Positions 19,395 to 62,552 of a stretch of DNA of 64,000 nucleotides are shown piece by piece. Origin of the DNA: a virus. A program made the position numbers and the translations under genes. Each line of letters begins with the position of its first letter. The stretch's first letter is position 1. The notes under the pieces are model-generated. The model did not search any database. It was not told the origin of the DNA and worked only from the letters and a program-made list of their open reading frames with translations. Location of the stretch: IMG/VR virus record IMGVR_UViG_3300013006_000018; one strand, 5' to 3'.

Positions 19395-19397
19395 GAA

Positions 19398-20084: not shown

Positions 20085-20085
20085 G

Positions 20086-20158: not shown

Positions 20159-20159
20159 T

Positions 20160-20474: not shown

Positions 20475-20508
20475 ACCTTGTTATAGGTGAAATTTGAATG
20501 AAAATCAA

Positions 20509-28944: not shown

Positions 28945-28948
28945 TACT

Positions 28949-40157: not shown

Positions 40158-40207
40158 GCACTGCTTCACACCCATACATTATAATATGAGGATATAATGA
40201 TATCAAC

Positions 40208-40281
40208 TAGCGGGGGCAGGATTTGAACCTGCGACCTTCTGGTTATGAGCCAGCTGAGCTACCGGACTGCTCCACCCCGCA
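40208..40281 (-). tRNA. initiator-type tRNA-fMet(CAU)
   Basis: TGCGGGG/CCCCGCT with unpaired 1:72, A11:U24, CTCATAA loop. Confidence 0.88.
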
Positions 40282-40296
40282 AGTAAGAGTATAATA

Positions 40297-40893
40297 CTAT
40301 TTAAGCCAAATATAAGCTGGGTCCAATGCATTGGTATCAAGATAATCCCATACCTTCCAATTATTGGTCTTTTTAACAGCTTCCACTAGGTTTGCAAGTA
40401 ATGCATTCAGATCATCAATATGCCATACATCATCAAGTAACTTTTTACCTGTTACCCGAGATTTATGTGCTATATGATCTGAATATGAGTATGCAAAACC
40501 AGTGAAGGGCGGTATCATACAACCCATGGAACAAAGAACCCCTTGCATGCGCGATACAATCTCCTTCCCCCCTACAGAATGCATGGTAACTATGACACTT
40601 ACCGGTTTACCCACTAAATGCTTTTTACCTTCAATCTGAGTCATCTTTTCAAATAACTGTTGCATCGGAGACCCCCAGGAATCCCAATATGTTCCTGAAC
40701 AAAATAATAAGCCATCACTGGTCCTAATAGTCTTACGTGCTCTTAACCAATCGAAACTAGGGGATAGATTTAATACACATACTTTTATAGAAGGATCTAT
40801 TTTTTGGAGTATTTTTCGGATCTTATTAATCAGCTGACCGGTGTTGCCAGAACGACCTCCAAGAGACCCATTTATAATAGAAATCTTCACCAC
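40297..40893 (-). CDS. flavodoxin-like NAD(P)H-dependent FMN reductase
   Basis: IINGSLGGRSGNT.., SGTYW.S.GSP, GKPVSVIVT.HSVGG. Confidence 0.8.
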   Translation of the reverse strand: MVKISIINGSLGGRSGNTGQLINKIRKILQKIDPSIKVCVLNLSPSFDWLRARKTIRTSDGLLFCSGTYWDSWGSPMQQLFEKMTQIEGKKHLVGKPVSVIVTMHSVGGKEIVSRMQGVLCSMGCMIPPFTGFAYSYSDHIAHKSRVTGKKLLDDVWHIDDLNALLANLVEAVKKTNNWKVWDYLDTNALDPAYIWLK

Positions 40894-40944
40894 ATAATGA
40901 TAGTGGAACCCATTTAGTTATCAAGAAAATTATTAAATATAGAT

Positions 40945-41904
40945 ATGGACGTCATTCCTATTAATGTTGGTTTTGTCCCAAATATTATACTATTTGGCAA
41001 TAACTTTCAATATACAAACGGTGTTTTTCTGAGTTCTAATCGTAACACTAATTTGACAAGTGTTTCGGCTTATAACTTCTTTTCAAATGTAAAGCGTCTA
41101 TCTTCTATATGCCCGCCTTTCTCTGGACAAGAAATAAACAATTATACTGTGGTAAATAGTAATACTATCAGTGTTGGATTAACATCTATCACAACCCCAG
41201 GCACCTACGATATTATCATCAAGAACGATGGAGGGTATTTTAAGACATCCTCAGCTAAAACGCTCTTGCTTAAAAGAGATACTTCAATTCCAACTCCTAC
41301 ACCGACTCCTACTCCGACACCAGCACCACCGTCTGCGTGTATTGAAGGTTGGTCATATACAAACTTTCAGGGGGCTACATTTAGGAACGGTGATCCCATT
41401 CCTGAAATTACGGATCAAGAAGCATGGAATACTGCTACAGGTCCAGGTTGGTGTTACTTTGATAATGACCCTGCCAATGATGCTATTTATGGGAAACTTT
41501 ACAACAGGTATGCTGTAGCCGATATCAGGGGGCTAGCTCCTGAAGGCTTCCATATACCAACTCTTGCCGAATGGGTTGATCTAATTACGTGCTTAGGGGG
41601 CTCAGATGCGGGTGGGGGTATATGGCCTGTTGCGGGCGCTAAGATGAAAACAACAGGTACAATTCAAGATGGGGATGGGTTGTGGAATACACCGAATGTT
41701 GCCACAAACGAAAGTCTCTTTTCAGTGGAACCAGCTGGCTGTAGAACAGGTGGTTTCATCAATCTGCACACCAGAGGCAGTTTCTGGGTGTATGATAGTG
41801 ATACCTGTATTAATTTTAATAATGGTGCCTCTTACGTTTATATCGGTGGTGATAGTGCAACAGTTGGTTATTCTATACGCTTAAAAGCAGGGCCCGGTTC
41901 ATAA
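40945..41904 (+). CDS. Ig/IPT-like domain + TP linker + FISUMP (Fibrobacter succinogenes major paralogous) domain
   Basis: FRNGDPIP..WCYFDND...YGKLYN.YAV.D.RGLAPEGFHIPT..EW..L, GYSIR; late promoter. Confidence 0.82.
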   Translation: MDVIPINVGFVPNIILFGNNFQYTNGVFLSSNRNTNLTSVSAYNFFSNVKRLSSICPPFSGQEINNYTVVNSNTISVGLTSITTPGTYDIIIKNDGGYFKTSSAKTLLLKRDTSIPTPTPTPTPTPAPPSACIEGWSYTNFQGATFRNGDPIPEITDQEAWNTATGPGWCYFDNDPANDAIYGKLYNRYAVADIRGLAPEGFHIPTLAEWVDLITCLGGSDAGGGIWPVAGAKMKTTGTIQDGDGLWNTPNVATNESLFSVEPAGCRTGGFINLHTRGSFWVYDSDTCINFNNGASYVYIGGDSATVGYSIRLKAGPGS

Positions 41905-41909
41905 AAGAA

Positions 41910-41981
41910 CTGCTCGGGTAGGGATCGAACCTACGACCAATGCATTAACAGTGCACCGCTCTACCGCTGAGCTACCGAGCA
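41910..41981 (-). tRNA. tRNA-Asn(GUU)
   Basis: GTGCA-CTGTTAA-TGCAT; full cloverleaf. Confidence 0.95.
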
Positions 41982-41984
41982 ATA

Positions 41985-42067
41985 TGGGCGGAGCTGGATT
42001 CGAACCAGCGAAGGCGTAAGCCAGCAGATTTACAGTCTGCCCCGTTTGGCCACTTCGGTATCCGCCC
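41985..42067 (-). tRNA. tRNA-Tyr(GUA)
   Basis: GCAGA-CTGTAAA-TCTGC, long V-arm. Confidence 0.95.
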
Positions 42068-42086
42068 AAAATCTTTTAAAGAACAG

Positions 42087-42171
42087 CGGGCAGAGTAGGA
42101 TTCGAACCCACGGATGCTTTCGCATCAACGGTTTTCAAGACCGTCGCTTTAGACCGCTCAGCCACCTGCCC
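42087..42171 (-). tRNA. tRNA-Ser(UGA)
   Basis: ACGGT-CTTGAAA-ACCGT, long V-arm, G73. Confidence 0.95.
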
Positions 42172-42176
42172 CGCAT

Positions 42177-42250
42177 CGCACTCACCAGGAATCGAACCTG
42201 GAACCGACGGTTTAGAAAACCGTTGCTCTATCCGGTTGAGCTATGAGTGC
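42177..42250 (-). tRNA. tRNA-Arg(UCU)
   Basis: ACGGT-TTTCTAA-ACCGT; A20 in the D loop. Confidence 0.93.
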
Positions 42251-42252
42251 AT

Positions 42253-42325
42253 TGGCGCTGACGGGATTCGAACCCGTGTATGGTCCTTGAAAGGGACCTG
42301 TCCTAGGCCCCTAGACGACAGCGCC
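42253..42325 (-). tRNA. tRNA-Glu(UUC)
   Basis: GGTCC-CTTTCAA-GGACC. Confidence 0.93.
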
Positions 42326-42373
42326 ATTCATATAATCTTATAGGTAAATATTTAAAAGTCAATTTATAAAATG

Positions 42374-42445
42374 AGCCGGTGATCGGGATTGAACCGATGA
42401 CCGACGGTTTACAAAACCGTTGCTCTACCACTGAGCTACACCGGC
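42374..42445 (-). tRNA. tRNA-Thr(UGU)
   Basis: GCCGGTG acceptor, ACGGT-TTTGTAA-ACCGT. Confidence 0.93.
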
Positions 42446-42447
42446 AT

Positions 42448-42520
42448 TGGAGGTATGGGGATTCGAACCCCAGACCTATAGCTTGCAAAGCTACCGCTCT
42501 ACCAACTGAGCTATACCCCC
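42448..42520 (-). tRNA. tRNA-Ala(UGC)
   Basis: G3:U70, GTAGC-TTTGCAA-GCTAT. Confidence 0.95.
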
Positions 42521-42528
42521 AGTTCATT

Positions 42529-42600
42529 CTGCCAGGCTAGGATTCGAACCTAGAACAGGCAGATCCAAAGTCTGCTGTGCTACCATTGCACCACCTGGCA
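42529..42600 (-). tRNA. tRNA-Gln(UUG)
   Basis: U1:A72, GCAGA-CTTTGGA-TCTGC. Confidence 0.94.
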
Positions 42601-42602
42601 AA

Positions 42603-42674
42603 TAGGCGATAAGGGATTCGAACCCCTGACCCTCTCCGTGTAAGGGAGACGCTCTACCGCTGAGCTAATCGCCT
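42603..42674 (-). tRNA. tRNA-Val(UAC)
   Basis: TCTCC-CTTACAC-GGAGA; TTGCAT-16-TAAACT promoter upstream. Confidence 0.94.
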
Positions 42675-45689: not shown

Positions 45690-45911
45690 ATGGCAGCAGG
45701 CAAAACAGCAAGTCACGGAAAACCCGGGCATAATACTTCACATCATAAGACACGTTTTATTGGCAATGATAAAGTTACTCCGGTTTTTTATGCAGGACAT
45801 AACTTAAAGCATGGTTCTTATATAGCAGGGCACGTTAACGGTAAAACCGTTGAAGATGCTAATGGTAGGCCTATTCCTTTTAAGCAAATAGGTGAGTTAA
45901 GAGCTGCTTAA
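45690..45911 (+). CDS. small basic hypothetical protein
   Basis: 73-aa ORF filling the gap between minus-strand units. Confidence 0.65.
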   Translation: MAAGKTASHGKPGHNTSHHKTRFIGNDKVTPVFYAGHNLKHGSYIAGHVNGKTVEDANGRPIPFKQIGELRAA

Positions 45912-47587
45912 TTTTCTCTTCTTAAATCTCTACTGTAGTGCACAAACCGATCGTGCTCTATAGGGGATAATAATAGTATAGCACTTCTAATCATTTTCTC
46001 TTTAGTTTGTTGATATATATATGACATCCATGTTTGTTCGTAGGGGTGTGCCCATTTTACATCAAGAAACATTTTCTGATTTCCTTCTCTTGATACAATC
46101 TGAGGCCAATTACAATAATATATTTCTCCGTCTGCATAGACTAAGGATTGATATGATTTAATGTTATTAAAGCTTGTTCTTGGTGGATTTGGATCTAACC
46201 CAAGCTTAGGTAGTCTTGTTTTAAATGGAAAGTATTCTTCTCTTTTTACCTGTGGTAAATTATACCAAGACCATTGAGTACTATTGTCACCAAAAAATTC
46301 TTTAAAGCTAAGCTTTAAGAAATCATACCCCTCTATATTCATAATAGAAATAACCTTATCAAATATATTTTCTGTATATCTATTAAAACCAAGAGGGCAA
46401 ATTTCTGTAGTTTCGGGAAGAATAAACATATCATCTTCCAAGAAGATACTATAATCACAATCAGTTTCTGCAAAATGCTCAGCGGCAAACTGCCGTCCTC
46501 CACATATACCTATATTATCTTTTTTAATTCTAACAAAGTTATACTTTTCACATAATTCACTATAACGTTCGTTAGTAGAAATATCTGTGCTATTATCAAT
46601 TAAGAAGTTTATCGTATTCGTAATAAATTTATTATGATAGGAATAAGAAATACATAGCTTTTCAAATTGATCTGGTGAATTAAACGTCAATACATAAAGA
46701 GCTACTTTAGCATTTATTATATTCTTTTTGTTAGTTGTTGTTGTTACGATTTTTGTTTTAACGGTATCATTTTTTAAATTTTCAAAGAACATTCCTATTA
46801 GACCGTTATCTTCTAATACAAATCTATCATACATCTCGGGGCGCTGGTGGGCCATGATTGTAAAGATAGATTCTTCTGTTCCCATGTAATCCTCTGAAAG
46901 AGTTTGTTGCAGAAGACCATAGTAATGCCCGTTTGCCTGCTTTATGTGATCAATATTACCGCCAAAGAAACCACCCCGACAAACATACTTTACATAATCA
47001 ATATCACAAAATTTATTCATTCCCTCTCTATCAAATCCATGAATCTCATTACCCCCTTCATAAGGGAAGGAAAGAAATAAGAATTTCTGTAAGATCGATT
47101 CAAGTTTATCTTGCACTTTATCGTGGGTGAAGTAACCTGGGTGTACTGTATTGGTTATACCCCCGTCAATCCATACTAAGTAATCTGATCCAAAGGGATT
47201 AAAGCAAGCTTGATCATGCAACATGAACATCTTGCACATGACCATAGGATTGTACAATTCTAAAGTGGCTTGCGTACTTTGTTTTAACCATTCAACTTGA
47301 TTGGACCAATTAGGATCGAGCCTTATCTTTTGGGCTTGTTTATAGAAATCAAATTTTTCTCGAAATTCATCAATTTCCTTTATATGAACACGGGTGTTTT
47401 CCTTCCTTCTATGCTGCCAAACTAAATCTTCATATTTTTTCTCAATATAAATAGCCATGTTCACATCGGCTTGCATGAGTTTTATAAAATTATCAATATA
47501 ATGTTGAAATGGTCGCTTGAACCCTTCGCCGGCCTGATCCCGACGTAAATCCCAGATACCTGTTACAAATGTTATGTTCTTAGACAT
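45908..47587 (-). CDS. HtrL/YibB(WlaTC)-like glycosyltransferase fused to a GT-A-like domain
   Basis: TFVTGIWDL, NPFGSDYLVWIDGG, GGFFGG, GTEE; second domain DNS..N.GICGGRQ..FLEDD; start taken at MSKNITF. Confidence 0.75.
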   Translation of the reverse strand: MSKNITFVTGIWDLRRDQAGEGFKRPFQHYIDNFIKLMQADVNMAIYIEKKYEDLVWQHRRKENTRVHIKEIDEFREKFDFYKQAQKIRLDPNWSNQVEWLKQSTQATLELYNPMVMCKMFMLHDQACFNPFGSDYLVWIDGGITNTVHPGYFTHDKVQDKLESILQKFLFLSFPYEGGNEIHGFDREGMNKFCDIDYVKYVCRGGFFGGNIDHIKQANGHYYGLLQQTLSEDYMGTEESIFTIMAHQRPEMYDRFVLEDNGLIGMFFENLKNDTVKTKIVTTTTNKKNIINAKVALYVLTFNSPDQFEKLCISYSYHNKFITNTINFLIDNSTDISTNERYSELCEKYNFVRIKKDNIGICGGRQFAAEHFAETDCDYSIFLEDDMFILPETTEICPLGFNRYTENIFDKVISIMNIEGYDFLKLSFKEFFGDNSTQWSWYNLPQVKREEYFPFKTRLPKLGLDPNPPRTSFNNIKSYQSLVYADGEIYYCNWPQIVSREGNQKMFLDVKWAHPYEQTWMSYIYQQTKEKMIRSAILLLSPIEHDRFVHYSRDLRREN

Positions 47588-47591
47588 CGTT

Positions 47592-48485
47592 TTAATAATT
47601 AGCAAAGATCTTATAAAAGCTATTAGCTTCACCAGAAAGATAACTAGTTCTTTCCCCAGGTGAAAAAAACCACCATAAGTCAAAAAGCTTTAAATCAAAC
47701 ATCTCAGGGAATATTGAATATAGTGCACTTAGTATAGGCTCTTCCGTACCGTACATTTTTTTGTCGATATAGAGGTTTAGCATTTCCTTGTATCTTTCAA
47801 AGAATATATTGTAAATGTCTCTATGACCACCAAATATACCGCCGATGACATGCTTCAACAGCTGTGGTTTATGTTCTAGTTTGTAGTATTCCTGGATCAT
47901 TAGCTCCTGATCGCCCACCATGCCTTGCATAGGGAGAGCACAACTAAATATTTTGCTTAAGTCTAAACTGTCATATATTTTATTTCCAAGAGCAGGCGTA
48001 AACATATTGGTTGTATTATGCGGATAATACCACTCTCTTTTTACTGGTATACGCATCTCTACCCCACCGACCTTCTCCGGAAAGATACCGTGATGCATTA
48101 AACCTGCATCGACCCAGAACGCTACGTCTGAATTAAAATATTTGTTATCAAGTACTTGCTTTACCCAGAACGCTTTTGAATAACAGAGCACTTCATTACG
48201 ATTCTTAGCTACGATACTTTCATATATTTCTTTTTTAAATGCCATGAATTTATCATGAAATTCAAATGCTGAAAGATCTTGTCCAATAACTTTAAAGTCG
48301 TTTATTGCATACTCAGATAGAAATTTTTCTGTTCTCTCGACACTATCATGATCTGTAAATAATACTAAGGGTTTGTTTAGGTTAAGAATGTTTACAAGGG
48401 TGGATTGATAGACGGCTAAATCCCACCCTCTTCCACCATAGATATCACTATCTCTACAACCATATACACAGGTAACTAAAGTCAC
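47592..48485 (-). CDS. HtrL/YibB(WlaTC)-like glycosyltransferase
   Basis: TLVTC, FWVDAG, GGIFGG, GTEE. Confidence 0.75.
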   Translation of the reverse strand: MTLVTCVYGCRDSDIYGGRGWDLAVYQSTLVNILNLNKPLVLFTDHDSVERTEKFLSEYAINDFKVIGQDLSAFEFHDKFMAFKKEIYESIVAKNRNEVLCYSKAFWVKQVLDNKYFNSDVAFWVDAGLMHHGIFPEKVGGVEMRIPVKREWYYPHNTTNMFTPALGNKIYDSLDLSKIFSCALPMQGMVGDQELMIQEYYKLEHKPQLLKHVIGGIFGGHRDIYNIFFERYKEMLNLYIDKKMYGTEEPILSALYSIFPEMFDLKLFDLWWFFSPGERTSYLSGEANSFYKIFANY

Positions 48486-48514
48486 TTAATAATTTATTTT
48501 TACTGTATAGGTTT

Positions 48515-49126
48515 TCAAGATAATATTCGCTTACACTCTTGAATAAAGATATCTTGTCTTTCTTGTTTGCGTACTTCAAAACAATGAAACGTATTATTTG
48601 AATAATGTGTGCCGATTCCAAATTCAAAATTATAAAACCCTGTATTACATTTCCAGAGCGGTATTAAGCATTTCTCAGGAAATGAAAAAACAATTTCTAT
48701 ATTTTTAATGCGGGTAATAATTGAAAATCTTTCTGCAACGTCAATTTCTTTATCTTCATAGAAGCCGCCACAAAAGGAGTCACATTCCACCTTGTTATAG
48801 GTATATTTTGTAAAGTTTAAAAAGCTAGGAGCGACATAAGGGTATGAGTTAGATGTTTGTGCATTTCCATATATACATGGGCTTTTATTGATGATACTCT
48901 TTGCTTCGTCAAAAACACCTGCACTAGTAGGGATAAGATCCACATCGAGAATAGAGATTGAATCCCACTCTTCCTTTTTTAAGAAAGTTTCTATAGCTTC
49001 ATGATGGTGTGTTTGGAAGGGTACTTGAAGTAAAGGAATATTAAATTTTTCAAAGACTTTCTTTTGATACGAAGCAATTTCACTGTTTAAATCGTTTTTA
49101 TAAAACGATACTGTTTTATGTATCAT
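48515..49126 (-). CDS. putative nucleotide-diphospho-sugar transferase (GT-A)
   Basis: ILDVDLIP DxD motif, inside the GT cluster. Confidence 0.6.
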   Translation of the reverse strand: MIHKTVSFYKNDLNSEIASYQKKVFEKFNIPLLQVPFQTHHHEAIETFLKKEEWDSISILDVDLIPTSAGVFDEAKSIINKSPCIYGNAQTSNSYPYVAPSFLNFTKYTYNKVECDSFCGGFYEDKEIDVAERFSIITRIKNIEIVFSFPEKCLIPLWKCNTGFYNFEFGIGTHYSNNTFHCFEVRKQERQDIFIQECKRILS

Positions 49127-49877
49127 AATTTATTTGTATCCATTTCTCCGGGTATATGTCGGTTGTATTGAAGTTATTATAACCTATGCCAAACCATTTA
49201 CTACGGGTAGGGCATATTATTTTTTTGTTTAGGTTTTTATTTAAATATGCAGCCCACCAGCTGAAGGTAGAATTACATATAATATTATCTTGACATAAAG
49301 ACATTAAAACAAAATCTTCATGAGGCTGTAATGAATAGAAATCGCAATCTATATCTCTAAAAGCTTCTTTACACCATTCTATATCATCTGAAAAGACGCT
49401 AAACTTCTTACAGCTTGTTTGTTCGATAGCTTTTAAAAAGTAGTTTCTTGGAGTAACCGGATGAAAGTCTTGTTGTGTGAGGTAATCGGTTCTTCTTACA
49501 TGAATACTGCATGTAGAGCCTATAGAAGGATAAAGCTCCTGGAGTTTAACCAGATCATCTTTAAAAGCAAAAATTTCAAATATTTCGTCTTTAATATTAG
49601 AAAAGAATTTTTCACTTTGATAGTAGCCTAGGAATTCATGAGAACCGTCCAGGATGATATCATAATAGTTCCATTGTAGTTGACTGTATGTTTTACTAGG
49701 TAGCGCTGTTATAATGGGAAGTGTATTTTTAAATATATGATTGACGTTTAAATCAAAATGCGTACCGTAGCTTAAATTGTTTTTTTTTGCTGTAGCTATG
49801 GTAGCAGCTATCTGAAATAGCTTATTACCGAAGCGGCCGTTCCTATCGTTGAAAACCAGGGTTTGTGACATTTTCAA
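49116..49877 (-). CDS. alpha-1,2-fucosyltransferase-like, family GT11
   Basis: GRFGNKLFQ, GYYQSEKFF, HVRRTDY, FSDDIEWC, NSTFSWWAAYL. Confidence 0.9.
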   Translation of the reverse strand: MKMSQTLVFNDRNGRFGNKLFQIAATIATAKKNNLSYGTHFDLNVNHIFKNTLPIITALPSKTYSQLQWNYYDIILDGSHEFLGYYQSEKFFSNIKDEIFEIFAFKDDLVKLQELYPSIGSTCSIHVRRTDYLTQQDFHPVTPRNYFLKAIEQTSCKKFSVFSDDIEWCKEAFRDIDCDFYSLQPHEDFVLMSLCQDNIICNSTFSWWAAYLNKNLNKKIICPTRSKWFGIGYNNFNTTDIYPEKWIQINYDT

Positions 49878-50691
49878 ATATTTTTTGTTTATAATTCATA
49901 TTATCATGAATATCAGTAACATCGAATCTATCCTTATGATTTAATGTAAGAATATTAAAAATTAACTCTTCTGAAGGTATGACATTATCAAGCATAAACT
50001 TTTTATATAGATCCCAGTACGGATTATAGAATTCATTTAATACGTCCTTATGCCCGCCCCAGAAGAATCCAAATATACATTTATTGAGATCAATACTGTT
50101 ATTAACAACAGAATAATTGTCTATATTGAATCTCCATAATTGCGATATGTTAGGCCCACCGAGTCTATAGATTAGAAATTTATTCTTCGAGAGTCTACTT
50201 GCTAAATTCTCAGAAAACATCTCACTATTTTCTTGTGTATTCAAATCACAGAGCATCCCAGCTGTAAATTGGCAATCAGCCCAGACAAAGTACTCTGAAT
50301 TAAACGGGTTCCGTTCCATAGCATCCTTTATCAAGTAATACTTCATTAAAACTAAAGGTGCATAATGCATTAGTAAGTTTATAATACCATTCTTATAAAC
50401 TTCCGGTTCTTTATATTTCTCAAGAAAGAGATCTTTCTCTATTAATTTTTCCATTAAAAGTTCTTTCGTCCAAGGGATACTCACAAAATTTGATTCATTT
50501 CTATTATCGGGAATATACACATCTGTAAAGGAATTGTATGAAACGAGTGGAAGGTAAGTATCTAAATTTTTTCTATAACCGCTCTCATATATAGAAAAGT
50601 CTCGTCTGAAAAGAGGATGCTCAATTTTATCCCTATCCAAATTTGTACAGCAGGTGACGTATGTAACTTTATGAGTCATATCTACGGCCAA
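49843..50691 (-). CDS. HtrL/YibB(WlaTC)-like glycosyltransferase
   Basis: TYVTC, NPFNSEYFVWAD, GFFWGG, SEE. Confidence 0.72.
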   Translation of the reverse strand: MAVDMTHKVTYVTCCTNLDRDKIEHPLFRRDFSIYESGYRKNLDTYLPLVSYNSFTDVYIPDNRNESNFVSIPWTKELLMEKLIEKDLFLEKYKEPEVYKNGIINLLMHYAPLVLMKYYLIKDAMERNPFNSEYFVWADCQFTAGMLCDLNTQENSEMFSENLASRLSKNKFLIYRLGGPNISQLWRFNIDNYSVVNNSIDLNKCIFGFFWGGHKDVLNEFYNPYWDLYKKFMLDNVIPSEELIFNILTLNHKDRFDVTDIHDNMNYKQKIFENVTNPGFQR

Positions 50692-51436
50692 ACTTCACGT
50701 TGTTCACTTCATAGTATTTATCTGTATAGACTGGAATGTGATAGAAAGGGTCATTTAAATTTTTTGCGTGGCCTAGATGGACTGGGCCTTTGTTAGTTTT
50801 TGTATACCACGCTTGCTTGTTTTTTATACGCATCAATGCTTCGTCATCTTCTGCACCCCAGGTTAGAAATTGCTCATTAAACCCGCCTACGTCTTTTAAG
50901 GCTTTTGTACCACAAATAAAGAAGCCGCCCATGGTTCCAAAGCCGGCGCTGTGTCTATAGTTGAAGTTACCATTAAGAACATTAGATTCTATATCTTCAA
51001 ACTTCTCATTGTTTAGATTAAAATCTATAAATTGATACCTCTTTTCTAATGCAATATCTATCAATTGGTATGTAAAGACAGCGTTCTGTTCATAAGACGC
51101 GACAACATCTTCCTTGAACTCATTATAATAGCTTTTATGAAAGTAACAATCCGAATCAATAATAGCAAATACGTCTGTATCGTTTTCAGTATGGTTTAAT
51201 GCATAGTTAATCTTTTTGCTTCTTTGATAGTATTGCTCATTTAACGGGATGTGAATCGAATCGTCAATATTTTTGTTGACAGAGAAATCGAACAAAAAGC
51301 ATTTTGAAGGTATGCCGTTACTATTTAAAAAAGAAACAAGATCTTTACTTCTGTTCCAACAAAATTTGGTATTTTCTAGGCGTACGGGATCACCGTTATC
51401 CCAGAACAGCATGTTGAGAGAAAATGAGGGAGCCAC
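50669..51436 (-). CDS. GT2/GT7-like (galactosyltransferase C-terminal motif) glycosyltransferase
   Basis: IDSDC; GGFNEQFLTWGAEDDE. Confidence 0.8.
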   Translation of the reverse strand: MAPSFSLNMLFWDNGDPVRLENTKFCWNRSKDLVSFLNSNGIPSKCFLFDFSVNKNIDDSIHIPLNEQYYQRSKKINYALNHTENDTDVFAIIDSDCYFHKSYYNEFKEDVVASYEQNAVFTYQLIDIALEKRYQFIDFNLNNEKFEDIESNVLNGNFNYRHSAGFGTMGGFFICGTKALKDVGGFNEQFLTWGAEDDEALMRIKNKQAWYTKTNKGPVHLGHAKNLNDPFYHIPVYTDKYYEVNNVKFGRRYDS

Positions 51437-51440
51437 TCTT

Positions 51441-52694
51441 TCAGCTTACTACATTAGCAAGAGCCCCTGTAATAGGATCTTGCCAACCTTTTGAAATACT
51501 ATGAGGCCAAACAATCCAGCTAGACGGCGTTACTTCCGTATTAAATTCACGCCACACTTTGCAATACTTATCCGGGTCGTTAAACATACGCTCGATCTCT
51601 TCCTTATCAGCATCTTTCCTATACAAGTCATTACCATCTTTATCCTTAAACGCTACACACCAGAAATCGTAATCCTTGTGAGGTACCTTATCATATCCCA
51701 CATCAATGCAATGCTTGAATATCCGGAGGAAGGACTTTTCCCAGTCTGCTTCGGAAGCGTAATTATACGGGTTAGGAGCGAGTTCATTATCTATAGTATA
51801 TTTTTGAACTGCTCTCTTCTTAAAGTGTAAGCCGGCATACCTTTCGTAATCACGTAGTGTGCGCTTCTTACCGAAGCCATACTTACTAAAGTCAGCATCT
51901 CTTTTTTCACCATCCATTTCAAACAGTTTTCTATTACGTAAATGGCATCTATTATTTTTTTCAACCCAGTTCTTATCATCATCCCACTGCTTGGTACGGC
52001 CCTTACGAGTATATTCATGCCATATAACAACACGATGAGGATGAAACAAATCATAACCATGGGTATAAGCACGAACTGCAATACTTATTTCCTCTCCGTG
52101 AAAGTAATATTCCGGATCGTGGGGTACTTCTTTGCAGAACTTACCTAATGTAAAGCAAAAATGAGCAGAGTAAAATCTCGCTGGAATTGGCTCATTTCTT
52201 TGTTGAAAATCATCTATAGATGCAGGTAGGAAGAAAACAGCTCCTTCAGGAATAAACCTATCAAAATTCATCTTCCAAGGTATCTGAATACGCGCAGCAG
52301 GGTCATTATCCGGATCAAAACTAGGAATATAACCGGTTAAAAGAGGCTTCTTATGTCCCTTCTTTTTTAGTTGCTTAATCATCTTAATTAAAATATCATC
52401 CCAATCCTGTACAAAGCGGTGATGGCTATCTAGCTGTAAAGTATAATCTTCATCTTTATAATACTGTTGAATCATATTACGAGCCCAGCAGGTGCCTTGG
52501 CTCTTTTCAAAGGGTACATCTAAAAAGATAAATCTCTCATCATCCTTAAACTTACTAATATCATCTTTATCATCGTGCTGCCAGCAAACACAAATCTTTA
52601 ATTCATCCGGGAATTTAGCTTTTGCTACTAAATCTGTGAGGGTAGGAATTAACTGAGGGTCTCTATAAGAGGCTATCTGTACAAATATCGACAT
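51441..52694 (-). CDS. GT60-like polypeptide/hydroxyproline alpha-GlcNAc transferase
   Basis: IFVQIASYRD, G.CWAR, LQLDSHHRF..WD, VPHDP..YFHGEE...R.YTHGYD..HP. Confidence 0.85.
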   Translation of the reverse strand: MSIFVQIASYRDPQLIPTLTDLVAKAKFPDELKICVCWQHDDKDDISKFKDDERFIFLDVPFEKSQGTCWARNMIQQYYKDEDYTLQLDSHHRFVQDWDDILIKMIKQLKKKGHKKPLLTGYIPSFDPDNDPAARIQIPWKMNFDRFIPEGAVFFLPASIDDFQQRNEPIPARFYSAHFCFTLGKFCKEVPHDPEYYFHGEEISIAVRAYTHGYDLFHPHRVVIWHEYTRKGRTKQWDDDKNWVEKNNRCHLRNRKLFEMDGEKRDADFSKYGFGKKRTLRDYERYAGLHFKKRAVQKYTIDNELAPNPYNYASEADWEKSFLRIFKHCIDVGYDKVPHKDYDFWCVAFKDKDGNDLYRKDADKEEIERMFNDPDKYCKVWREFNTEVTPSSWIVWPHSISKGWQDPITGALANVVS

Positions 52695-52735
52695 ATGTTT
52701 ATTTTATGATACGCGATTTAAATATCCATCACAGG

Positions 52736-55378: not shown

Positions 55379-56049
55379 GTAAAGTTATTTATATCGGCTA
55401 GAGCTAAAAGACCACTGTGTTTACCATATTGTAGATCAAAGACAATATTCTTGTTACTGTAGTGATTACAAAGCTTTAGTAGTCGTTTGTCCAGATTAAT
55501 GCTTGTTGTTTGTTTATAAATTTCAAAATCAAAGATGTTACTTACCCAAAAGTATATATCGTCCTGTACTACAGGAAGCACTTCAAAATTTTTAATTAGA
55601 TCAAGATGTATAAATTCTTTTTCGACTTCCAGAAATTTATCCCATGCCTTTAAGAATAATTTTTTTGATTGAAACCAGGTCTTGATCGTAGTATCTAATT
55701 TTTGGTCATAATATGATAAGTCTAGAGAGTTAACATCGGTCTTAAAGATTGAGTCATAATATATGTTTTTAAAACCACGCACTACACCAGACATGTTACA
55801 GCCTTTAAAATTAGCGATAAAATATTTATAAAATTCTAGTTGTGTAAGACTAATATCAAAGAAGAACATCTTCTTAAAATTTTGACCTTCAGAAATTTTA
55901 ACTGGCTTAAAGCCACAAGAAGGGCCAATAAAAATATTATATTTCTTAGTTGTAGAATACACAGGTTCAGAATTAAAAACTCTCGCATAGTCGTTTAATT
56001 TAAGAAGCTGAATAGAATAAGGCGCAGTTTTATATTTCTCTAAATTCAT
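55375..56049 (-). CDS. hypothetical protein
   Basis: 224-aa ORF coupled to the radical SAM gene. Confidence 0.65.
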   Translation of the reverse strand: MNLEKYKTAPYSIQLLKLNDYARVFNSEPVYSTTKKYNIFIGPSCGFKPVKISEGQNFKKMFFFDISLTQLEFYKYFIANFKGCNMSGVVRGFKNIYYDSIFKTDVNSLDLSYYDQKLDTTIKTWFQSKKLFLKAWDKFLEVEKEFIHLDLIKNFEVLPVVQDDIYFWVSNIFDFEIYKQTTSINLDKRLLKLCNHYSNKNIVFDLQYGKHSGLLALADINNFT

Positions 56050-57344
56050 ACTTTCCCATTAAAATTCATATAGCTATTTACCATATGCTTAAAATCACTC
56101 AAATCACTCTTAATAATGCTATCTAACCATTTCTCGGTAAAATACATATTGTCTTTTCTTTTCGTTAGCTCATCATTAAAGACATTTATATTTAAATTAT
56201 GTAGTCTAGATAACTCTGAAAGAAAATTATATTTCTCCGGAGACATTGCTCTTAGTTTGTCCAATACATTCATATCTTGTGTCTCGATCCTGCGCTTATG
56301 TGTCTTTTTAAAGAAGTCTATGACATCCATAAGCGAGTTGTAATTTTCGTTTTTTGGTAGAAATTTATTTATAATAGAAATATTTGTCTCGTAGAAATCG
56401 GTAATACTTTTTAGTTCCCTAGCTCCTAACGCCTCTATAGATAATTCGTTGGGGTTATTAACATGATGAAAGTAAATCTTTGCATCATGCTTGTTAGCAA
56501 AGATTATTAAATTGATTAAATCCGTAGCATTTGTAGTGCAGATAACAGAAGAAATATAAAAGTTCTTCTTTCTCTTTGTCAGGACAGTGTTAAATTTTTT
56601 ACAATTCTCGCTGACAATTGCAAAAGAAGCATTTTTTCTAATTTCTTCATAGACTTGTTTGGTGCCGCCATCTATCGATACACTCAAATTAATGTTAAGC
56701 TTATTAAGGATTTGCTCGGTCTTATTTGAAAAAACAGTTCCGTTAGTTTGAATATAAAGCTCTGCAGTAGACTTGTTCTTTAATAGAATATCAAATATTT
56801 TGTCATAAATAGAGATTAAGAATGGTTCTCCGCCAAAGAAGTTTATTTGTTTAGCATTTAAAACAAAAGGTGTTATTTCGTTTATAAAGCTTTCAGTATT
56901 ATATGGAGAATTATAGGCAGGCATTTTTTCCCTATTTTTTCTTATAGAAGAAGAAAATTTACCGCTACACATGATACATTCTAGATTGCATTTATTATCT
57001 AATTCTAAATCTAGCTTATAAGGATATTTCAAGTCCCTATAATCTCCTTCCATATCGTACTGCGGTATTTTAAGTAATTTAAATTTCTCTAGATTTAAAA
57101 AATATTCACATGCAAAACATCCTTTCTTAAAAGAGAAGCTATCGACTTCTTTTCTTATGCTCTTGTATTTTTCACCATTCCAAATCTCTTCTAACGTTTG
57201 TTCAGGGTATCTTCCAACCTCATAATACCTATTCGCGCAGCATACCGTTGCAGCACCATTATGACCGAGGTATAAGTTTGTATGTGGGGCGTGACAGAGT
57301 GTACCAATACTCTTTCTTCTAGAAAGAAACTCAGTCTTAGTCAT
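56046..57344 (-). CDS. radical SAM enzyme with N-terminal SPASM/twitch domain
   Basis: CNLECIMC, GGEPF, TNGT, SIDG; N-terminal C.AP..G..CC...IWNG..C..C. Confidence 0.9.
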   Translation of the reverse strand: MTKTEFLSRRKSIGTLCHAPHTNLYLGHNGAATVCCANRYYEVGRYPEQTLEEIWNGEKYKSIRKEVDSFSFKKGCFACEYFLNLEKFKLLKIPQYDMEGDYRDLKYPYKLDLELDNKCNLECIMCSGKFSSSIRKNREKMPAYNSPYNTESFINEITPFVLNAKQINFFGGEPFLISIYDKIFDILLKNKSTAELYIQTNGTVFSNKTEQILNKLNINLSVSIDGGTKQVYEEIRKNASFAIVSENCKKFNTVLTKRKKNFYISSVICTTNATDLINLIIFANKHDAKIYFHHVNNPNELSIEALGARELKSITDFYETNISIINKFLPKNENYNSLMDVIDFFKKTHKRRIETQDMNVLDKLRAMSPEKYNFLSELSRLHNLNINVFNDELTKRKDNMYFTEKWLDSIIKSDLSDFKHMVNSYMNFNGKV

Positions 57345-57888
57345 TGACTTTAAAACTCAAGGAAAGTGAAATTTTTGATGAGTTAGAAAAATTGTATACT
57401 GAATGCATTTTAAAAAGATCAAAAATAATATAATCACCTGGGGTTTTTATTGTTTTATATTCATTCTCTGTTTCGTACAAGCAATAGTTATCAAGTTCGT
57501 TCAAAAGAACATGAAAAATATGAAAATTATCTTTTTCATGTTTATGTCTAGGAAAGTAAGATTGGTTATTTAAAATACAGAAGTTGACTGTGTAAATTTG
57601 AAATTTTTCACTAATATTAGATTGTATGCAGGATAGTGTCAGGGGATAAGTTTTTGCTGTTTTTTGTGTGAGGAGATCCGTATTATCGAATATGGGAATT
57701 GAGACCCACGGTATTGTATTCTTCTCGTTACTATTAAACACAGCAACATCATCTTTACCATTGTTCTTATAATAGTACTTTACAAATAACGACGAGTCAT
57801 TTTTTACAAATTCATCTAAGAAAACTGCATGTTGTGATTGTATTTCTTTTAGGAAAGGAAAATCTTCAACAGAATAGAAACAACTCAT
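57337..57888 (-). CDS. Asp/Asn beta-hydroxylase-like 2OG-Fe(II)/cupin oxygenase
   Basis: FPRHKH ... FD...HSVYN. Confidence 0.7.
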   Translation of the reverse strand: MSCFYSVEDFPFLKEIQSQHAVFLDEFVKNDSSLFVKYYYKNNGKDDVAVFNSNEKNTIPWVSIPIFDNTDLLTQKTAKTYPLTLSCIQSNISEKFQIYTVNFCILNNQSYFPRHKHEKDNFHIFHVLLNELDNYCLYETENEYKTIKTPGDYIIFDLFKMHSVYNFSNSSKISLSLSFKVND

Positions 57889-57890
57889 TA

Positions 57891-58361
57891 TTATAAGAGG
57901 TTTGTTTTATCGACTGCTTTAAAAAAACGGTTAGCCTGTACGAGCGACTTTATATTCGGAATTTTTTCTAATTTTAGTCTAAAAATTGTACCTTCTTGAA
58001 ATGGAGAATTTTCGTGCGCGATTTTTACTGTCGCATTTGCATAAAAGATGTCTTTTTCCATTAAATCCTTAATCTTTATCTTGGTCTGAAATGCGTCTTT
58101 TTCATCACAGCTACATGTATTTGTACTGTATAGATAGTTGTCAATAATTTTAAAAGCTAGTTTAAAGTTATCTTTCTTCTGACTAAACGTTTTAACTTTT
58201 TTATTTTCTATTAAACAATAGCAATACTTGTTTTCCATATGCTTCTTCTCACTTCTTACGTCACATGTGCTCGGGTCTATAATTTTCTTGACTTTACAAG
58301 TGTCTACATCAATCATGGTAATCTTAAAAAAGACACAGTTTACTTTAATATTGTTTTTCAT
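57891..58361 (-). CDS. hypothetical Cys-containing protein
   Basis: 156-aa ORF in the operon. Confidence 0.55.
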   Translation of the reverse strand: MKNNIKVNCVFFKITMIDVDTCKVKKIIDPSTCDVRSEKKHMENKYCYCLIENKKVKTFSQKKDNFKLAFKIIDNYLYSTNTCSCDEKDAFQTKIKIKDLMEKDIFYANATVKIAHENSPFQEGTIFRLKLEKIPNIKSLVQANRFFKAVDKTNLL

Positions 58362-58365
58362 TTCG

Positions 58366-59202
58366 TCAGTATAGATTTTTTTCTAATTTAGTTGTAAATT
58401 TATGATAGTTTTCGTATCTCTCTTTTGCAACTATAGTTCGGTTACAGTTAATATCTTCTTTTTTATTTGGATTGTAGTTTAAGAGTATCTCGGGGGTCAT
58501 TTCAAGTTCTTCCAACCCATTCTGTGTCTGTTGGTAAATAAATAATTTTTCCGACTTAGGTATAATCCCTAGTCCGATGGCTATTCTCATATTATGATTT
58601 ACAGGTGTTGAGACAGAGCCATGTACTACACGTGGATACATTGTAATAACATCACCTGCATCTAGGGGCAGTAATATTTTTGATCTCTTTAAAAGCTCCT
58701 CCTTATAGTTGTTGAGCCTTAAAGTGAAATCTATACCCCGTATGAAGTTTAAGAGTGTTTTATGGGTCTCAGGTACTACATACAGCGGCGCGGTTTTTTC
58801 ATCGAGGTCATCCAGAGCGAACCATACAGTAAGAGATGATGTTTCCAGAGACTCTCTTACCAGAGAAATATCTTGATGTACCTTACACTCATTGTCGCCA
58901 CCCGGGTATTTAACAATATAATTACCTACTGAAATTTTATAATCTGAAAAGTTACTCTCTATAAATGGGGTAAGGCTTTTTAATAAAAATTGGTATACAT
59001 CACGTTTATAGTCAAGATTTTCACTCATAGCCGTGTTAACGTGAGTTATGTTTTTATCAATATATTTTTGTAGATTAGAGCTTTTAAAGGTTGATAGGTA
59101 ATATTGTTTTAAATCTGCTAATACTGTTTTTGATATACTATTTTTTAGTATAACAAACCCGTCGTCCAATAAACACTTATTAAGTTTTTTATCTAGTAGC
59201 AT
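58366..59202 (-). CDS. phytanoyl-CoA dioxygenase (PhyH)-like 2OG-Fe(II) oxygenase
   Basis: DGFVIL, HQD, TVWFALDD, L.VVP.TH, AGD...HGS, R. Confidence 0.85.
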   Translation of the reverse strand: MLLDKKLNKCLLDDGFVILKNSISKTVLADLKQYYLSTFKSSNLQKYIDKNITHVNTAMSENLDYKRDVYQFLLKSLTPFIESNFSDYKISVGNYIVKYPGGDNECKVHQDISLVRESLETSSLTVWFALDDLDEKTAPLYVVPETHKTLLNFIRGIDFTLRLNNYKEELLKRSKILLPLDAGDVITMYPRVVHGSVSTPVNHNMRIAIGLGIIPKSEKLFIYQQTQNGLEELEMTPEILLNYNPNKKEDINCNRTIVAKERYENYHKFTTKLEKNLY

Positions 59203-59228
59203 AATATTATTAAATTATAAATAATTAT

Positions 59229-59780
59229 GTGAATTACTTAGATTTCAATGCGTTTGCTTGTCCATATATCTATATAAGTACAAGATATTATTGTAATAGG
59301 GGGTTGACATACTTTGAGAATTCTGATACAAGCTTTGAGTTATCTAGATATATTCTAACTAAGAAGGATTATGTAGGTAATACTTATTTTGACTACGAAA
59401 TGAAATCACTTGTACCGTCTAATGTTGAAGGTGGCGGAGATAGCAGCTTTCGTCTAATGCATATTCCAGAGAAGAAAATACTTTTAACCATTGAACAAGG
59501 TATAATTATAGAAGATTCTATTTTAGCGGATTTAGAAAGTAACGAGGAATATATAAATATTGTCCTAACTAACAGTGGTGCTTTTATAACAGGGGAACTC
59601 CAGCAATGCGGTGTAGGTATTTATAAAGTTAAATATACATACAAGAACAATGAAGCCGTAACTGACGACAACTCTATTAATTGTGAAAGTCGAATATTTT
59701 TATCAGATACCAATATTGAACCGGCTTTTGATAGCGAAGGCTATATTCTTCCTGCATCTAATTTAGCAAGCCCGATTTAA
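59229..59780 (+). CDS. hypothetical late protein
   Basis: TAAATA-N5-GTG, 183 aa. Confidence 0.65.
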   Translation: MNYLDFNAFACPYIYISTRYYCNRGLTYFENSDTSFELSRYILTKKDYVGNTYFDYEMKSLVPSNVEGGGDSSFRLMHIPEKKILLTIEQGIIIEDSILADLESNEEYINIVLTNSGAFITGELQQCGVGIYKVKYTYKNNEAVTDDNSINCESRIFLSDTNIEPAFDSEGYILPASNLASPI

Positions 59781-59794
59781 CTAACTTTGTAAAA

Positions 59795-60484
59795 CTAGTA
59801 CCGCTTGTGTTGTGTTAGGGTGTAAGAGAGCGAATCATTAAGTAGTTCCGCCCATTCAACTCTTTGGGTATTAGTTATTGCCTTGTAATTACAATGTACG
59901 ATAAGATGTATTCTTAGTTCGCTACTACCATTATAAACAATATGCTCATTACTAGTATCCAGCATAAACGCCTGTCCAGTACTAAGCGGAACATAACCAT
60001 AACCTTTCATTTTAAAGATACAGTTTTTAGGGTTATTGAGAGCTATATTAATAGGCGCTAAAGTTTTTTTAGGCATATCAACGTGTGGTTCTATATATCC
60101 TCCAGGCTCAAGAAGCATATATCTGACTCTAAAGAAACCGGTACCAAAAAAGGTCTTTTTTAAGAAATTTACTGCTATAGGGCACTTATTTGAAATGTCA
60201 GTAAACTGATATGGTACTTTATCTTGATCTAAATTTTTATACTCGTCATAATGCGTATAGTCGTATATATGGCTCGATGTTATGCCATGAATACATAGTG
60301 ACTTCCACCCCTTGCTATTTGTTTCACGGTATTCGGTAAAATGTTCTTTGAGCTTAATTGCCTCTTCATACATCTGCTCTGCGGGTACATCAATATTAAG
60401 CTTTATCCATGGTAAACAGCTTTCTAACAAAAACCATTCTACGTCCGGCTCTTGAAATATAAACTGTTTAATTTTGCTCGTCAT
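59795..60484 (-). CDS. Asp/Asn beta-hydroxylase-like 2OG-Fe(II) oxygenase
   Basis: WKSLCIHG, RVRYMLLEPGGYIEPHVD, HIVYN..R.HLIV. Confidence 0.82.
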   Translation of the reverse strand: MTSKIKQFIFQEPDVEWFLLESCLPWIKLNIDVPAEQMYEEAIKLKEHFTEYRETNSKGWKSLCIHGITSSHIYDYTHYDEYKNLDQDKVPYQFTDISNKCPIAVNFLKKTFFGTGFFRVRYMLLEPGGYIEPHVDMPKKTLAPINIALNNPKNCIFKMKGYGYVPLSTGQAFMLDTSNEHIVYNGSSELRIHLIVHCNYKAITNTQRVEWAELLNDSLSYTLTQHKRY

Positions 60485-60520
60485 TCTATATATATTAATT
60501 GAAGTGAGATATAATTCAAA

Positions 60521-61192
60521 TTGTATGCAATGAAAATTAACAGTGTCTACAACAATAGTATCTCATCATTTATTGGCCTGAATTGCCAAGATGATAAAAT
60601 TATATCTGTAAAAAAATATTTTATTGTAAACAAAGATTTATTTTTGAATTTTGCGCTACAGGCATTTAAACTAAACTTAACGTTAGATAATATTGATCAC
60701 AGCAAAGAGGTCGGTATTAAGAATGGTGGTTGTATTTGCTTTAAGCATACAAAACAAAAAGATTATCAAGCTATCTATTATAAAGAAGCTTCAAAACAAT
60801 ACAAACCTTATGAAGATTATCATTTAAATGCTTTTGAAAAGGCAGATAATTTGTTGTTTTTTAAGAAATATTTTTATACAAAAAATCGGCAATTCATCAA
60901 TAAAGCAATGACCGAATATGGTATTAAGCATAAGAACTTTGATGCTCTTGAAGTATGCACAGGCACTAGCTATAGAAATAGACAGCAAAGTATGAAGATG
61001 GCTATCATAGACGAAAAAACTAACTTTAAAAAAGTATCAGTTTTTAGTAAGCCATTTAAAAACATAAATATACCTAATAGGATATATATAGCTTATGGAA
61101 AAGATCGGTATAATAATACAGAGAGTCATTACTTTACGAATGGGCTAACTTGGCAGCTGCCTGCAGCATTAATATATGATGAAATTATTTAA
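60521..61192 (+). CDS. hypothetical protein
   Basis: 223-aa ORF. Confidence 0.6.
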   Translation: MYAMKINSVYNNSISSFIGLNCQDDKIISVKKYFIVNKDLFLNFALQAFKLNLTLDNIDHSKEVGIKNGGCICFKHTKQKDYQAIYYKEASKQYKPYEDYHLNAFEKADNLLFFKKYFYTKNRQFINKAMTEYGIKHKNFDALEVCTGTSYRNRQQSMKMAIIDEKTNFKKVSVFSKPFKNINIPNRIYIAYGKDRYNNTESHYFTNGLTWQLPAALIYDEII

Positions 61193-62481: not shown

Positions 62482-62552
62482 AGCCTTAAAATGTGAGCTA
62501 GTATTAATAGGAATTATATTTAACTCAAAACTATATTGTGCAATATGGCATC

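Follow-up and report, generated by a model that had tools for sequence, protein, structure and literature searches.

Seven contiguous transferase genes and their products

We analyzed a 64,000-nucleotide stretch of the IMG/VR virus record IMGVR_UViG_3300013006_000018 (hereafter the window, with positions counted from its first letter), which contains a run of seven genes for known or presumed glycosyltransferases (GTs) headed by a GT60-like gene. The window is part of the genome of a large uncultured phage and includes tail-spike and tail-fiber genes and 14 tRNA genes. A search of 50,697 GenBank phage records turned up no close relative, the sole DNA match being a 73-base tRNA-like stretch. 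The seven contiguous open reading frames (ORFs) occupy positions 45908-52694 of the minus strand, are spaced or overlap by a few bases, and are listed here from 5' to 3' with the candidate promoter that precedes them.

52701-52728, minus strand: candidate promoter, a sigma-70-like hexamer pair of TGGATA (52728-52723) and TAAAAT (52706-52701), 16 nucleotides (nt) apart
51441-52694, minus strand: GT60-like protein of 417 amino acids (aa) (PF11397, "GlcNAc", E-value 2.5e-75, 254.6 bits against a cut-off of 21; phrog_24687, E-value 2.7e-178)
50669-51436, minus strand: GT-A transferase of 255 aa with a galactosyltransferase-type (GT7C) C-terminal motif (PF02709, 2e-9; weak GT2 match, PF10111, 3e-4)
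49843-50691, minus strand: HtrL/YibB-like presumed transferase of 282 aa (PF09612, 2e-4, 21.4 bits, under the cut-off of 24.1)
49116-49877, minus strand: GT11 family transferase of 253 aa (PF01531, 5.6e-28, 98.5 bits against 23.9; phrog_2644, 5e-48)
48515-49126, minus strand: small GT-A-like protein of 203 aa (DxD motif ILDVDLI; look-alikes in the ESM Atlas)
47592-48485, minus strand: HtrL/YibB family protein of 297 aa (PF09612, 4e-6, 27 bits against a cut-off of 24.1)
45908-47587, minus strand (ORF to 47683): HtrL+GT-A fusion of 559 aa (PF09612 in the N-terminal half, 7e-10, 39.4 bits)

A sequence-only reading of this DNA had described the unbroken minus-strand run, its families, and its promoter. 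The near-abutting ORFs bear out the run, and the hexamers lie where they were quoted, with TAAAAT ending 6 nt 5' of the GT60 ATG at 52694 in an intergenic gap of 41 nt. The family assignments agree with Pfam, with two caveats: the protein encoded at 49843-50691 (which shares ca. 26% identity with HtrL domains in other loci) is best called HtrL-like, short of confirmed PF09612 membership, and the small protein encoded at 48515-49126 matched no Pfam or PHROG family and was placed by its DxD motif and its nearest ESM Atlas clusters, viral "glycosyltransferase family A" proteins (score 0.98, template modeling (TM) score 0.9). The PF11397 match spans profile positions 103-351 and an N-terminal stretch, and the PF01531 match spans profile positions 98-297 of 298; characterized GT11 members are alpha-1,2-fucosyltransferases. 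The GT7C-type protein has the DxD motif IIDSDCY. The fusion most likely starts at the ATG at 47587, four bases past the stop of the preceding gene, because its homologues begin at ORF residue 33.

None of the seven proteins contains a membrane-spanning hydrophobic segment, and all are predicted to be soluble. Families of priming phosphoglycosyl transferases, flippases, or polymerases were found neither among the window ORFs scanned nor among 63 clusters of neighboring proteins from related loci (see below). The run thus differs from a Wzx/Wzy- or ABC-type lipid-linked locus in having no hydrophobic segments and no priming transferase, flippase, or transporter families.

Sequence searches with the GT60 and fusion proteins gave no meaningful match among PDB chains. 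We modeled GT60 with AlphaFold2 using 31 homologues (predicted local distance difference test, pLDDT, 86; predicted TM score, pTM, 0.83). Residues 1-300 form the catalytic GT-A domain, whose DxH motif (D89-S-H91) is invariant in the 31 homologues, and residues 300-417 (ca. 115 residues) form an extra conserved beta-rich domain that lies beyond the Pfam model. The top 38 Foldseek matches of the GT60 model in the PDB are all polypeptide N-acetylgalactosamine (GalNAc)-transferases, as are the top 29 rows of VIA-align (Z 18-21.4, root-mean-square deviation (rmsd) ca. 3.5 over ca. 270 residues); the first generic GT-A enzyme appears only at Z ca. 17. The modeled structure most closely resembles the enzymes that initiate mucin-type glycosylation, in keeping with the proposal that this protein is a relative of such initiators. 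The ranking also agrees with published work, in which GT60 enzymes are polypeptide alpha-N-acetylglucosamine (GlcNAc)-transferases related to GT27 and the enzyme acting on Skp1 is soluble and cytosolic (PMC8724618).

The animal GT27 enzymes, which give the best structural matches, share the DxH-type metal motif with the phage protein, and both would use dense Thr/Pro tracts. Sequence identity is only 13-15%, however, and the phage protein, which lacks a membrane anchor, would act in the cytoplasm rather than in the Golgi. The C-terminal domain of GT27 is ricin-like. An ESM Atlas search with the C-terminal 120 residues of the phage GT60 gave no usable match. The likeness to protist GT60 enzymes (the mucin-type enzymes of Dictyostelium and Trypanosoma cruzi, and Gnt1 acting on Skp1) extends to the PF11397 profile, the GT-A fold, the DxH motif, and the kinship with GT27, and the predicted solubility recalls the Skp1 enzyme. 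Unlike the protist enzymes, the GT60 described here is phage-encoded, carries the extra C-terminal domain, has a predicted activity, and has as its partner an HtrL+GT-A fusion that the protist pathways lack.

The AlphaFold2 model of the fusion (pLDDT 86) has two alpha/beta domains. The C-terminal domain (289-559) is a canonical GT-A domain with an invariant E-D-D-M motif and has structural matches to B4GALNT1 (Z 16.7), RmlT, POMGnT1, and GnT-I. For the whole chain, the best Foldseek matches, all with low TM scores, are the two-domain transferases LH3, LARGE1, Mimivirus R699, chondroitin polymerase (K4CP), and heparosan synthase. We do not claim the N-terminal HtrL domain as a proven GT-A domain, since it is covered solely by these two-domain matches at an rmsd of ca. 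18. Some fusion homologues (in loci L008, L017, L021, L023, L006, and others) are ca. 770-820 aa long and have an extra N-terminal domain of ca. 225 residues, and one jumbo-phage record (G039:C1:15212-15970) has GT60 within an 820-residue open frame; further domain fusions thus occur in this system.

Thr/Pro-rich stalks and a conserved enzyme pair

Six proteins encoded in the window contain TPT-type tracts of 100-400 residues with 10-29 TPT triplets each, in which 30-residue stretches reach 70-80% Thr plus Pro. The corresponding TPTxTPTxTPT coding pattern occurs four times in the window and not once in 100 shuffles. These proteins, in which no signal peptide was found, are candidate acceptors.

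3316-5451, minus strand: 711 aa, 24 TPT triplets, best 30-aa stretch 80% Thr plus Pro; N-terminal anchor motif of 40 aa, Thr/Pro tract at ca. 37-232, C-terminal globular domain
5455-14628, minus strand: 3057 aa (PF12708, 2.4e-12; PF12218, 1.6e-7); anchor motif, Thr/Pro tract at ca. 45-183, then a pectate-lyase-like and endosialidase-type tailspike body
20776-21690, plus strand: 304 aa, 28 TPT triplets; anchor motif, then a near-pure Thr/Pro stalk (33% Thr, 16% Pro)
21694-23394, plus strand: 566 aa, 29 TPT triplets; anchor motif and three Thr/Pro tracts; directly 5' of a tail-spike gene at 23404-25260 (phrog_4636, 7e-132)
34137-34733, plus strand: 198 aa; Thr/Pro tract at residues 13-100 and a small C-terminal domain; a late-type TAAATA box lies 5 nt ahead of the start
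34730-35572, plus strand: 280 aa; Thr/Pro tract at residues 22-119; directly 5' of a tail-fiber gene at 35612-37522 (phrog_17885, 4e-58)

The first four share a basic N-terminal motif of ca. 40 residues followed by a stalk and differ in their C-terminal domains. From their sequences, they look like a modular display family composed of anchor, stalk, and payload. T4-type TAAATA boxes lie a few bases 5' of several late starts in the window. The sequence-only reading had counted seven such proteins. The seventh (40945-41904, plus strand) drops out, as it has only a short (TP)4-5 linker ahead of a Fibrobacter succinogenes major domain (Fib_succ_major, PF09603, 1.8e-23). This domain is typical of Fibrobacter/Bacteroidota-type bacteria and may hint at the host group.

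Scanning IMG/VR with the GT60 protein recovered 202 confirmed relatives, and the locus counts given here refer to the best 80 loci, whose GT60 proteins are 66-77% identical. A strong Thr/Pro ORF lies within 10 kb of GT60 in 32 of these 80 loci, compared with none of 80 control loci picked by a random 14-base pattern. Over whole records, the TPTxTPTxTPT pattern is present in 36/45 GT60-positive records and in 2/46 random-pattern controls (Fisher p = 1.6e-14). All ten GT60-positive records that are at least 90% complete carry it, and the GT60-positive set has 72 matches per Mb. The association also appears in the reverse direction: among records chosen by the Thr/Pro DNA pattern alone, 12/47 encode PF11397, as against 0/47 controls (p = 2e-4), and the fraction is 8/13 for those longer than 100 kb.

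We further compared 78 loci that share a 1047-aa structural protein, which is encoded two genes 5' of GT60 in one type of locus (type A, below). This lineage-anchored set was collected with an alignment; the single 1047-aa sequence gave only four loci. Where at least 6 kb of sequence was available, a downstream Thr/Pro gene is present in 13/13 GT60-positive and 5/44 GT60-negative loci (p = 3.5e-9). In records of more than 100 kb, the Thr/Pro pattern occurs in 16/20 GT60-positive relatives and in none of 11 GT60-negative ones (p = 1.6e-5), and three genomes that are at least 93% complete and have no GT60 also have no Thr/Pro match. The co-occurrence of GT60 with Thr/Pro-rich genes, which the sequence-only reading had put forward as a check, was thus seen in both search directions, in the anchored set, by adjacency (below), and in independent lineages.

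Most GT60 loci have the same companion gene. A fusion homologue (43-62% identity) lies within the same locus in 73/80 cases, whereas the other genes of the window cluster are scarce: relatives of the GT7C/GT2-like gene occur in six of the 80 loci and GT11 in one. The genes flanking the cluster in the window (exonuclease, radical-SAM, and others) are essentially absent from the 80 loci, where only a 145-aa ORF recurs, in a single locus. Two arrangements dominate. In type A (38 loci, the arrangement that the window also has), GT60 is followed by three to six genes and then the fusion; in type B (30 loci), the fusion lies directly 5' of GT60, and three to five genes follow. The variable genes encode 273 distinct proteins that fall into 63 clusters. 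Their Pfam families, all of enzymes that build or tailor glycans, include FkbM and TylF methyltransferases, GT10, GT17, GT25, a PLOD-type GT, a carbamoyltransferase, a sulfotransferase, a GNAT acetyltransferase, a DegT aminotransferase, and an epimerase/dehydratase. GT60 and the fusion are the conserved core, as bookends or as a head pair, and the remainder is a hypervariable cassette; O-antigen loci likewise have conserved and variable parts. The notion of a seven-gene pathway stands in so far as the genes encode predicted soluble transferases, but only GT60 and the fusion are conserved across related loci. The suggestion that the genes follow the sequence in which sugars are added is contradicted and was dropped as a rule, because the fusion lies 5' of GT60 in 30 of 68 loci (and last in the other 38) and the genes between are not conserved.

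Many type-A loci show a characteristic order on one strand: two genes for large proteins, a Thr/Pro protein, GT60, the cassette, the fusion, and another Thr/Pro protein. A Thr/Pro-rich gene lies directly 5' of GT60 in 11/36 type-A loci and directly after the fusion in 9/34, although such genes make up 2.9% of all ORFs in these loci. The large neighbors matched no PHROG family, so their role in the virion is suggested by size and position only. The flanking Thr/Pro proteins of other phages have a 230-aa N-terminal domain followed by a stalk, unlike the candidates in the window. As they differ in architecture, GT60 appears linked to the tract and not to one protein family.

The pair in cultured phages and in bacteria

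Only four of the 50,697 GenBank phage records contain a GT60 gene, namely Xanthomonas phages XacN1 and Xoo-sp13 and Stenotrophomonas phages CM1 and RAS14. Their GT60 proteins are 47-51% identical to that of the window (49% for XacN1 and Xoo-sp13), and the fusion of XacN1 and Xoo-sp13 is 42% identical. In XacN1, ORF334 encodes GT60 and ORF330 the fusion. In the latter two phages the cassette order is GT60, carbamoyltransferase, HtrL-like, ORF, and fusion, so that the same conserved pair is present with a carbamoyltransferase in place of GT7C and GT11. The cassette adjoins baseplate-wedge genes and a gene for a protein of ca. 3,300 aa (ORF325 of XacN1, Xoosp13_296 of Xoo-sp13) with one P/T/S linker of ca. 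40 residues. XacN1 virions contain at least two Schiff-stained glycoproteins, and the authors of that study suggested phage transferases as their makers (PMC5852040).

By contrast with this rarity in culture, the GT60 protein family comprises at least 7,644 protein clusters in metagenomes, all of them unnamed or generically named. Environmental phage sequence is thus very rich in the family, from which cultured phages are almost excluded. In the literature searched, PF11397 is named only in one paper on a brown alga, and we found no relevant study that joins GT60 and phage. To our knowledge, the family has been characterized only in protists.

A scan of one genome per prokaryotic species revealed 31 bacterial GT60 loci with GC contents of 0.29-0.70, most of them with the fusion adjacent. 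They are distributed over Saprospiraceae, Gemmatimonadaceae, Verrucomicrobia, Acidobacteriota, Rhodobiaceae, Achromobacter, and an isolate of Paraherbaspirillum soli. Several have Thr/Pro-rich neighbors of different kinds. In an Achromobacter metagenome-assembled genome (MAG) and in the P. soli isolate, these are VgrG spikes (Phage_GPD, 2e-90, with gp5 C-terminal and OB domains) that carry a long terminal (TP)n. The genes concerned (L431:13055-15538 and L422:11903-14461, both on the minus strand) have one or two GT60 homologues at a distance of 3-5 kb. The VgrG sequences suggest that type VI secretion spikes may be glycosylated, the same chemistry possibly decorating secretion-system spikes and phage stalks.

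In Gemmatimonadaceae, the gene for a PqqD-domain (peptide-chaperone type) protein with a Thr/Pro/Ser tail ends ca. 50 bases before GT60 and the fusion (L414:7215-7937 and L416:7314-7952, both on the plus strand). The gene content of this locus suggests that bacteria, too, employ the enzyme pair to modify peptides or proteins. Just upstream of the PqqD gene in one of these genomes (L416:4233-6458, plus strand) is a gene for a nucleotidyltransferase (NTP_transf_5) fused to an HtrL domain. A verrucomicrobial MAG encodes a near-pure Thr/Pro protein with a Tat signal just after the fusion, and in a Bacteroidia MAG the Thr/Pro neighbors of GT60 include a protein with a Por-secretion tail.

Proposed glycosylation of appendage stalks

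The enzyme pair and its association with Thr/Pro tracts are real, recurrent, and extend beyond this window. We consider it probable, with considerable room for doubt, that the seven genes direct a cytoplasmic, lipid-independent O-glycosylation of the phage's own Thr/Pro appendage stalks, for which we infer the acceptor, the sugars, and the order of the steps. The soluble enzymes would build an O-linked oligosaccharide stepwise from sugar nucleotides in the cytoplasm of the infected cell, before or during assembly. The GT60-like enzyme would place the first sugar on Thr (by family analogy, alpha-GlcNAc from uridine diphosphate (UDP)-GlcNAc), the HtrL+GT-A fusion would add the conserved inner part of the glycan, and the GT7C/GT2-like, GT11, small GT-A, and two HtrL proteins would add an outer part that differs between phages. 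By analogy only, a GlcNAc start with Gal- and Fuc-type additions from the GT7C/GT2-like and GT11 enzymes would resemble the trisaccharide core of Skp1. Our guesses at the benefits are stalk stiffening, protease resistance, and masking from or adhesion to surfaces.

More tentatively, and with the balance of our judgment against it as it stands, GT60 and the fusion might be the conserved core of a widespread, so far undescribed mucin-type O-glycosylation of prokaryotes and phages that is specific for Thr/Pro tracts. Such a system would act on the appendages of thousands of uncultured environmental phages and on bacterial type VI secretion spikes and other Thr/Pro-tailed proteins, with the cassette setting a phage-specific glycan "serotype". 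A bolder version of this idea has the fusion polymerize a repeating unit, as LARGE1 or chondroitin polymerase does, which would yield proteoglycan-like stalks.

Several observations weigh against stalk glycosylation. The identity of the sugar and its linkage to Thr are assigned by analogy with the family, and glycosylation in this phage and its close relatives is predicted from genes. In the window, ca. 10 kb separate the cluster from the nearest strong Thr/Pro gene, and the genes directly beside the cluster are not Thr/Pro-rich. The Schiff-stained bands of XacN1 were not assigned to proteins, and that phage has a single short P/T/S linker. Nine of the 45 GT60-positive records have no Thr/Pro pattern (all nine are fragments), and five near-complete phage genomes are Thr/Pro-positive with neither GT60 nor the fusion, so the stalks do not require this system. 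The control records are shorter than the GT60 records, and a Thr/Pro match is present in two of the five controls that are largest (95-239 kb, with four above 100 kb). The GT60-positive loci of the anchored set all belong to one clade (52-70% identity to the anchor); the counts thus lack phylogenetic independence, and one ancestral gain together with a shared habitat could account for much of the signal. Among bacteria, Thr/Pro adjacency was seen in six of 31 loci, a count made without a control set.

Some of these observations also fit an alternative in which the substrate of the transferases is not a protein. It could be the bases of phage DNA, a glycan or lipid-linked precursor of the host envelope, or an oligosaccharide in free form; the Thr/Pro tracts would then be ordinary flexible linkers that stay unmodified, and their co-occurrence with GT60 would stem from shared ancestry and habitat. 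The single clade of the anchored set and the complete genomes that have Thr/Pro tracts and no GT60 speak for it, and HtrL is named for a gene in the lipopolysaccharide core region of Escherichia coli. Phage transferases, including GT-A enzymes, are moreover known to put mono- to trisaccharides on 5-hydroxymethylcytosine DNA, sometimes near structural genes, but the paper describing them mentions neither GT60 nor HtrL (bioRxiv 10.1101/2023.12.21.572611). We nevertheless regard a non-protein target as unlikely: in structural comparisons with the GT60 model, polypeptide transferases come ahead of every other GT-A enzyme, a membrane segment, priming transferase, flippase, and polymerase are all missing from the scanned proteins, and Thr/Pro adjacency recurs in unrelated settings that include bacterial VgrG, PqqD, and Tat proteins.

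A second alternative concerns the linkage and involves genes upstream of the cluster, in a run (56046-64000) that is mostly on the minus strand.

56046-57344: radical-SAM/SPASM protein
57337-57888, 59795-60484, and 61176-61763: three Asp/Asn-beta-hydroxylase-like (Asp_Arg_Hydrox) proteins
58366-59202: PhyH dioxygenase
61735-62481: methyltransferase
62758-63555: GT8 glycosyltransferase, the eighth glycosyltransferase of the window
continuing past the window end (64000): asparagine-synthase-like gene

The products of this run might act on the candidate acceptors or on other proteins, by hydroxylation or some other modification. If the nearby oxygenases hydroxylated the prolines of the TPT tracts, GT60 might act like Gnt1 and place the glycan on hydroxyproline, giving a plant- or algal-type hydroxyproline-glycoprotein stalk. 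Gnt1, from a branch of GT60, acts once the proline has been hydroxylated and attaches GlcNAc to Hyp143 of Skp1 (PMC8724618), Thr alternates with Pro in every tract, and the three Asp/Asn-hydroxylase-like genes and PhyH (57337-61763) and GT8 lie on the promoter-proximal side of the cluster. Yet the oxygenases, 5-9 kb upstream, match Asp_Arg_Hydrox and PhyH and not prolyl 4-hydroxylase, and two opposite-strand genes are interspersed among them. None of the genes of 56046-64000 is kept beside GT60 in the 80 related loci, and such oxygenases are absent within 10 kb of GT60 there, whereas the Thr/Pro link is general. We therefore think a hydroxyproline-linked glycan improbable.

Least probable, in our view, are protein targets other than virion stalks (host proteins, for takeover or superinfection exclusion, or non-structural phage proteins), which would suit cytoplasmic, soluble enzymes, the bacterial pairs that sit beside non-virion Thr/Pro proteins, and a window cluster whose direct neighbors are DUF5856, a coiled-coil whisker-like protein, the 145-aa ORF, and an exonuclease, but fit poorly with the many related phages that embed the cassette, co-oriented, between Thr/Pro and large structural-type genes, and with XacN1, whose cassette adjoins baseplate genes and whose virion proteins give a positive sugar stain.

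Glycosylation of virion stalks, the reading we prefer, would have parallels in known systems. The serine-rich-repeat adhesins of Gram-positive bacteria receive O-GlcNAc in the cytoplasm on a long low-complexity Ser/Thr repeat from GtfA/GtfB, after which strain-variable soluble transferases extend the glycan. This logic is similar to that proposed here; the adhesin system differs in having a GT4 pair of GT-B fold as initiator, a Ser-rich acceptor, and accessory Sec export. The capsid glycans of the chlorovirus PBCV-1 are N-linked, and PBCV-1 and Mimivirus are eukaryotic viruses with different linkages and no GT60 initiator, unlike the phage of the window, although the Mimivirus collagen-type transferase R699 is among the top Foldseek matches of the fusion. 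Self-glycosylation of phage particles has, as far as we know, been demonstrated only in a few mycobacteriophages. Giant viruses offer a precedent for virus-encoded glycosylation of virion proteins in the cytoplasm, independent of the endoplasmic reticulum (PMC5852040). The mycobacteriophages Che8, Corndog, and Myrna are reported to glycosylate virion proteins in the host cytoplasm with their own transferases (Freeman et al. 2023, as cited in PMC12363180). There the targets are capsid and tail-tube subunits and the modification was shown experimentally, whereas here they would be Thr/Pro stalks of appendages with a GT60 initiator. Phage virion glycosylation itself is thus known, in mycobacteriophages, or suggested, in XacN1.

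If the proposal holds, many aquatic phages carry mucin-like glycan brushes on their fibers, which would bear on adsorption, particle stability, grazing, immune recognition, and the display of receptor-binding proteins. The variable cassette would then provide soluble enzymes for building glycans directly on a simple peptide repeat, a new resource for glyco-engineering. The cultured Xanthomonas and Stenotrophomonas jumbo phages make the hypothesis open to testing.

Two further groups of genes in the window, both on the minus strand, complete the picture.

19322-20598 and 40207-42674, minus strand: two clusters that together hold the 14 tRNA genes, among them two for tRNA-Met and one for tRNA-Ile(TAT)
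27298-30816, minus strand: three adjacent genes for an ATPase (phrog_1297), a VWA-like DUF2201 protein, and a DUF2201_N putative metallopeptidase

The VWA-like DUF2201 protein of the second group has a Pro/Thr/Gly-rich N-terminal region.

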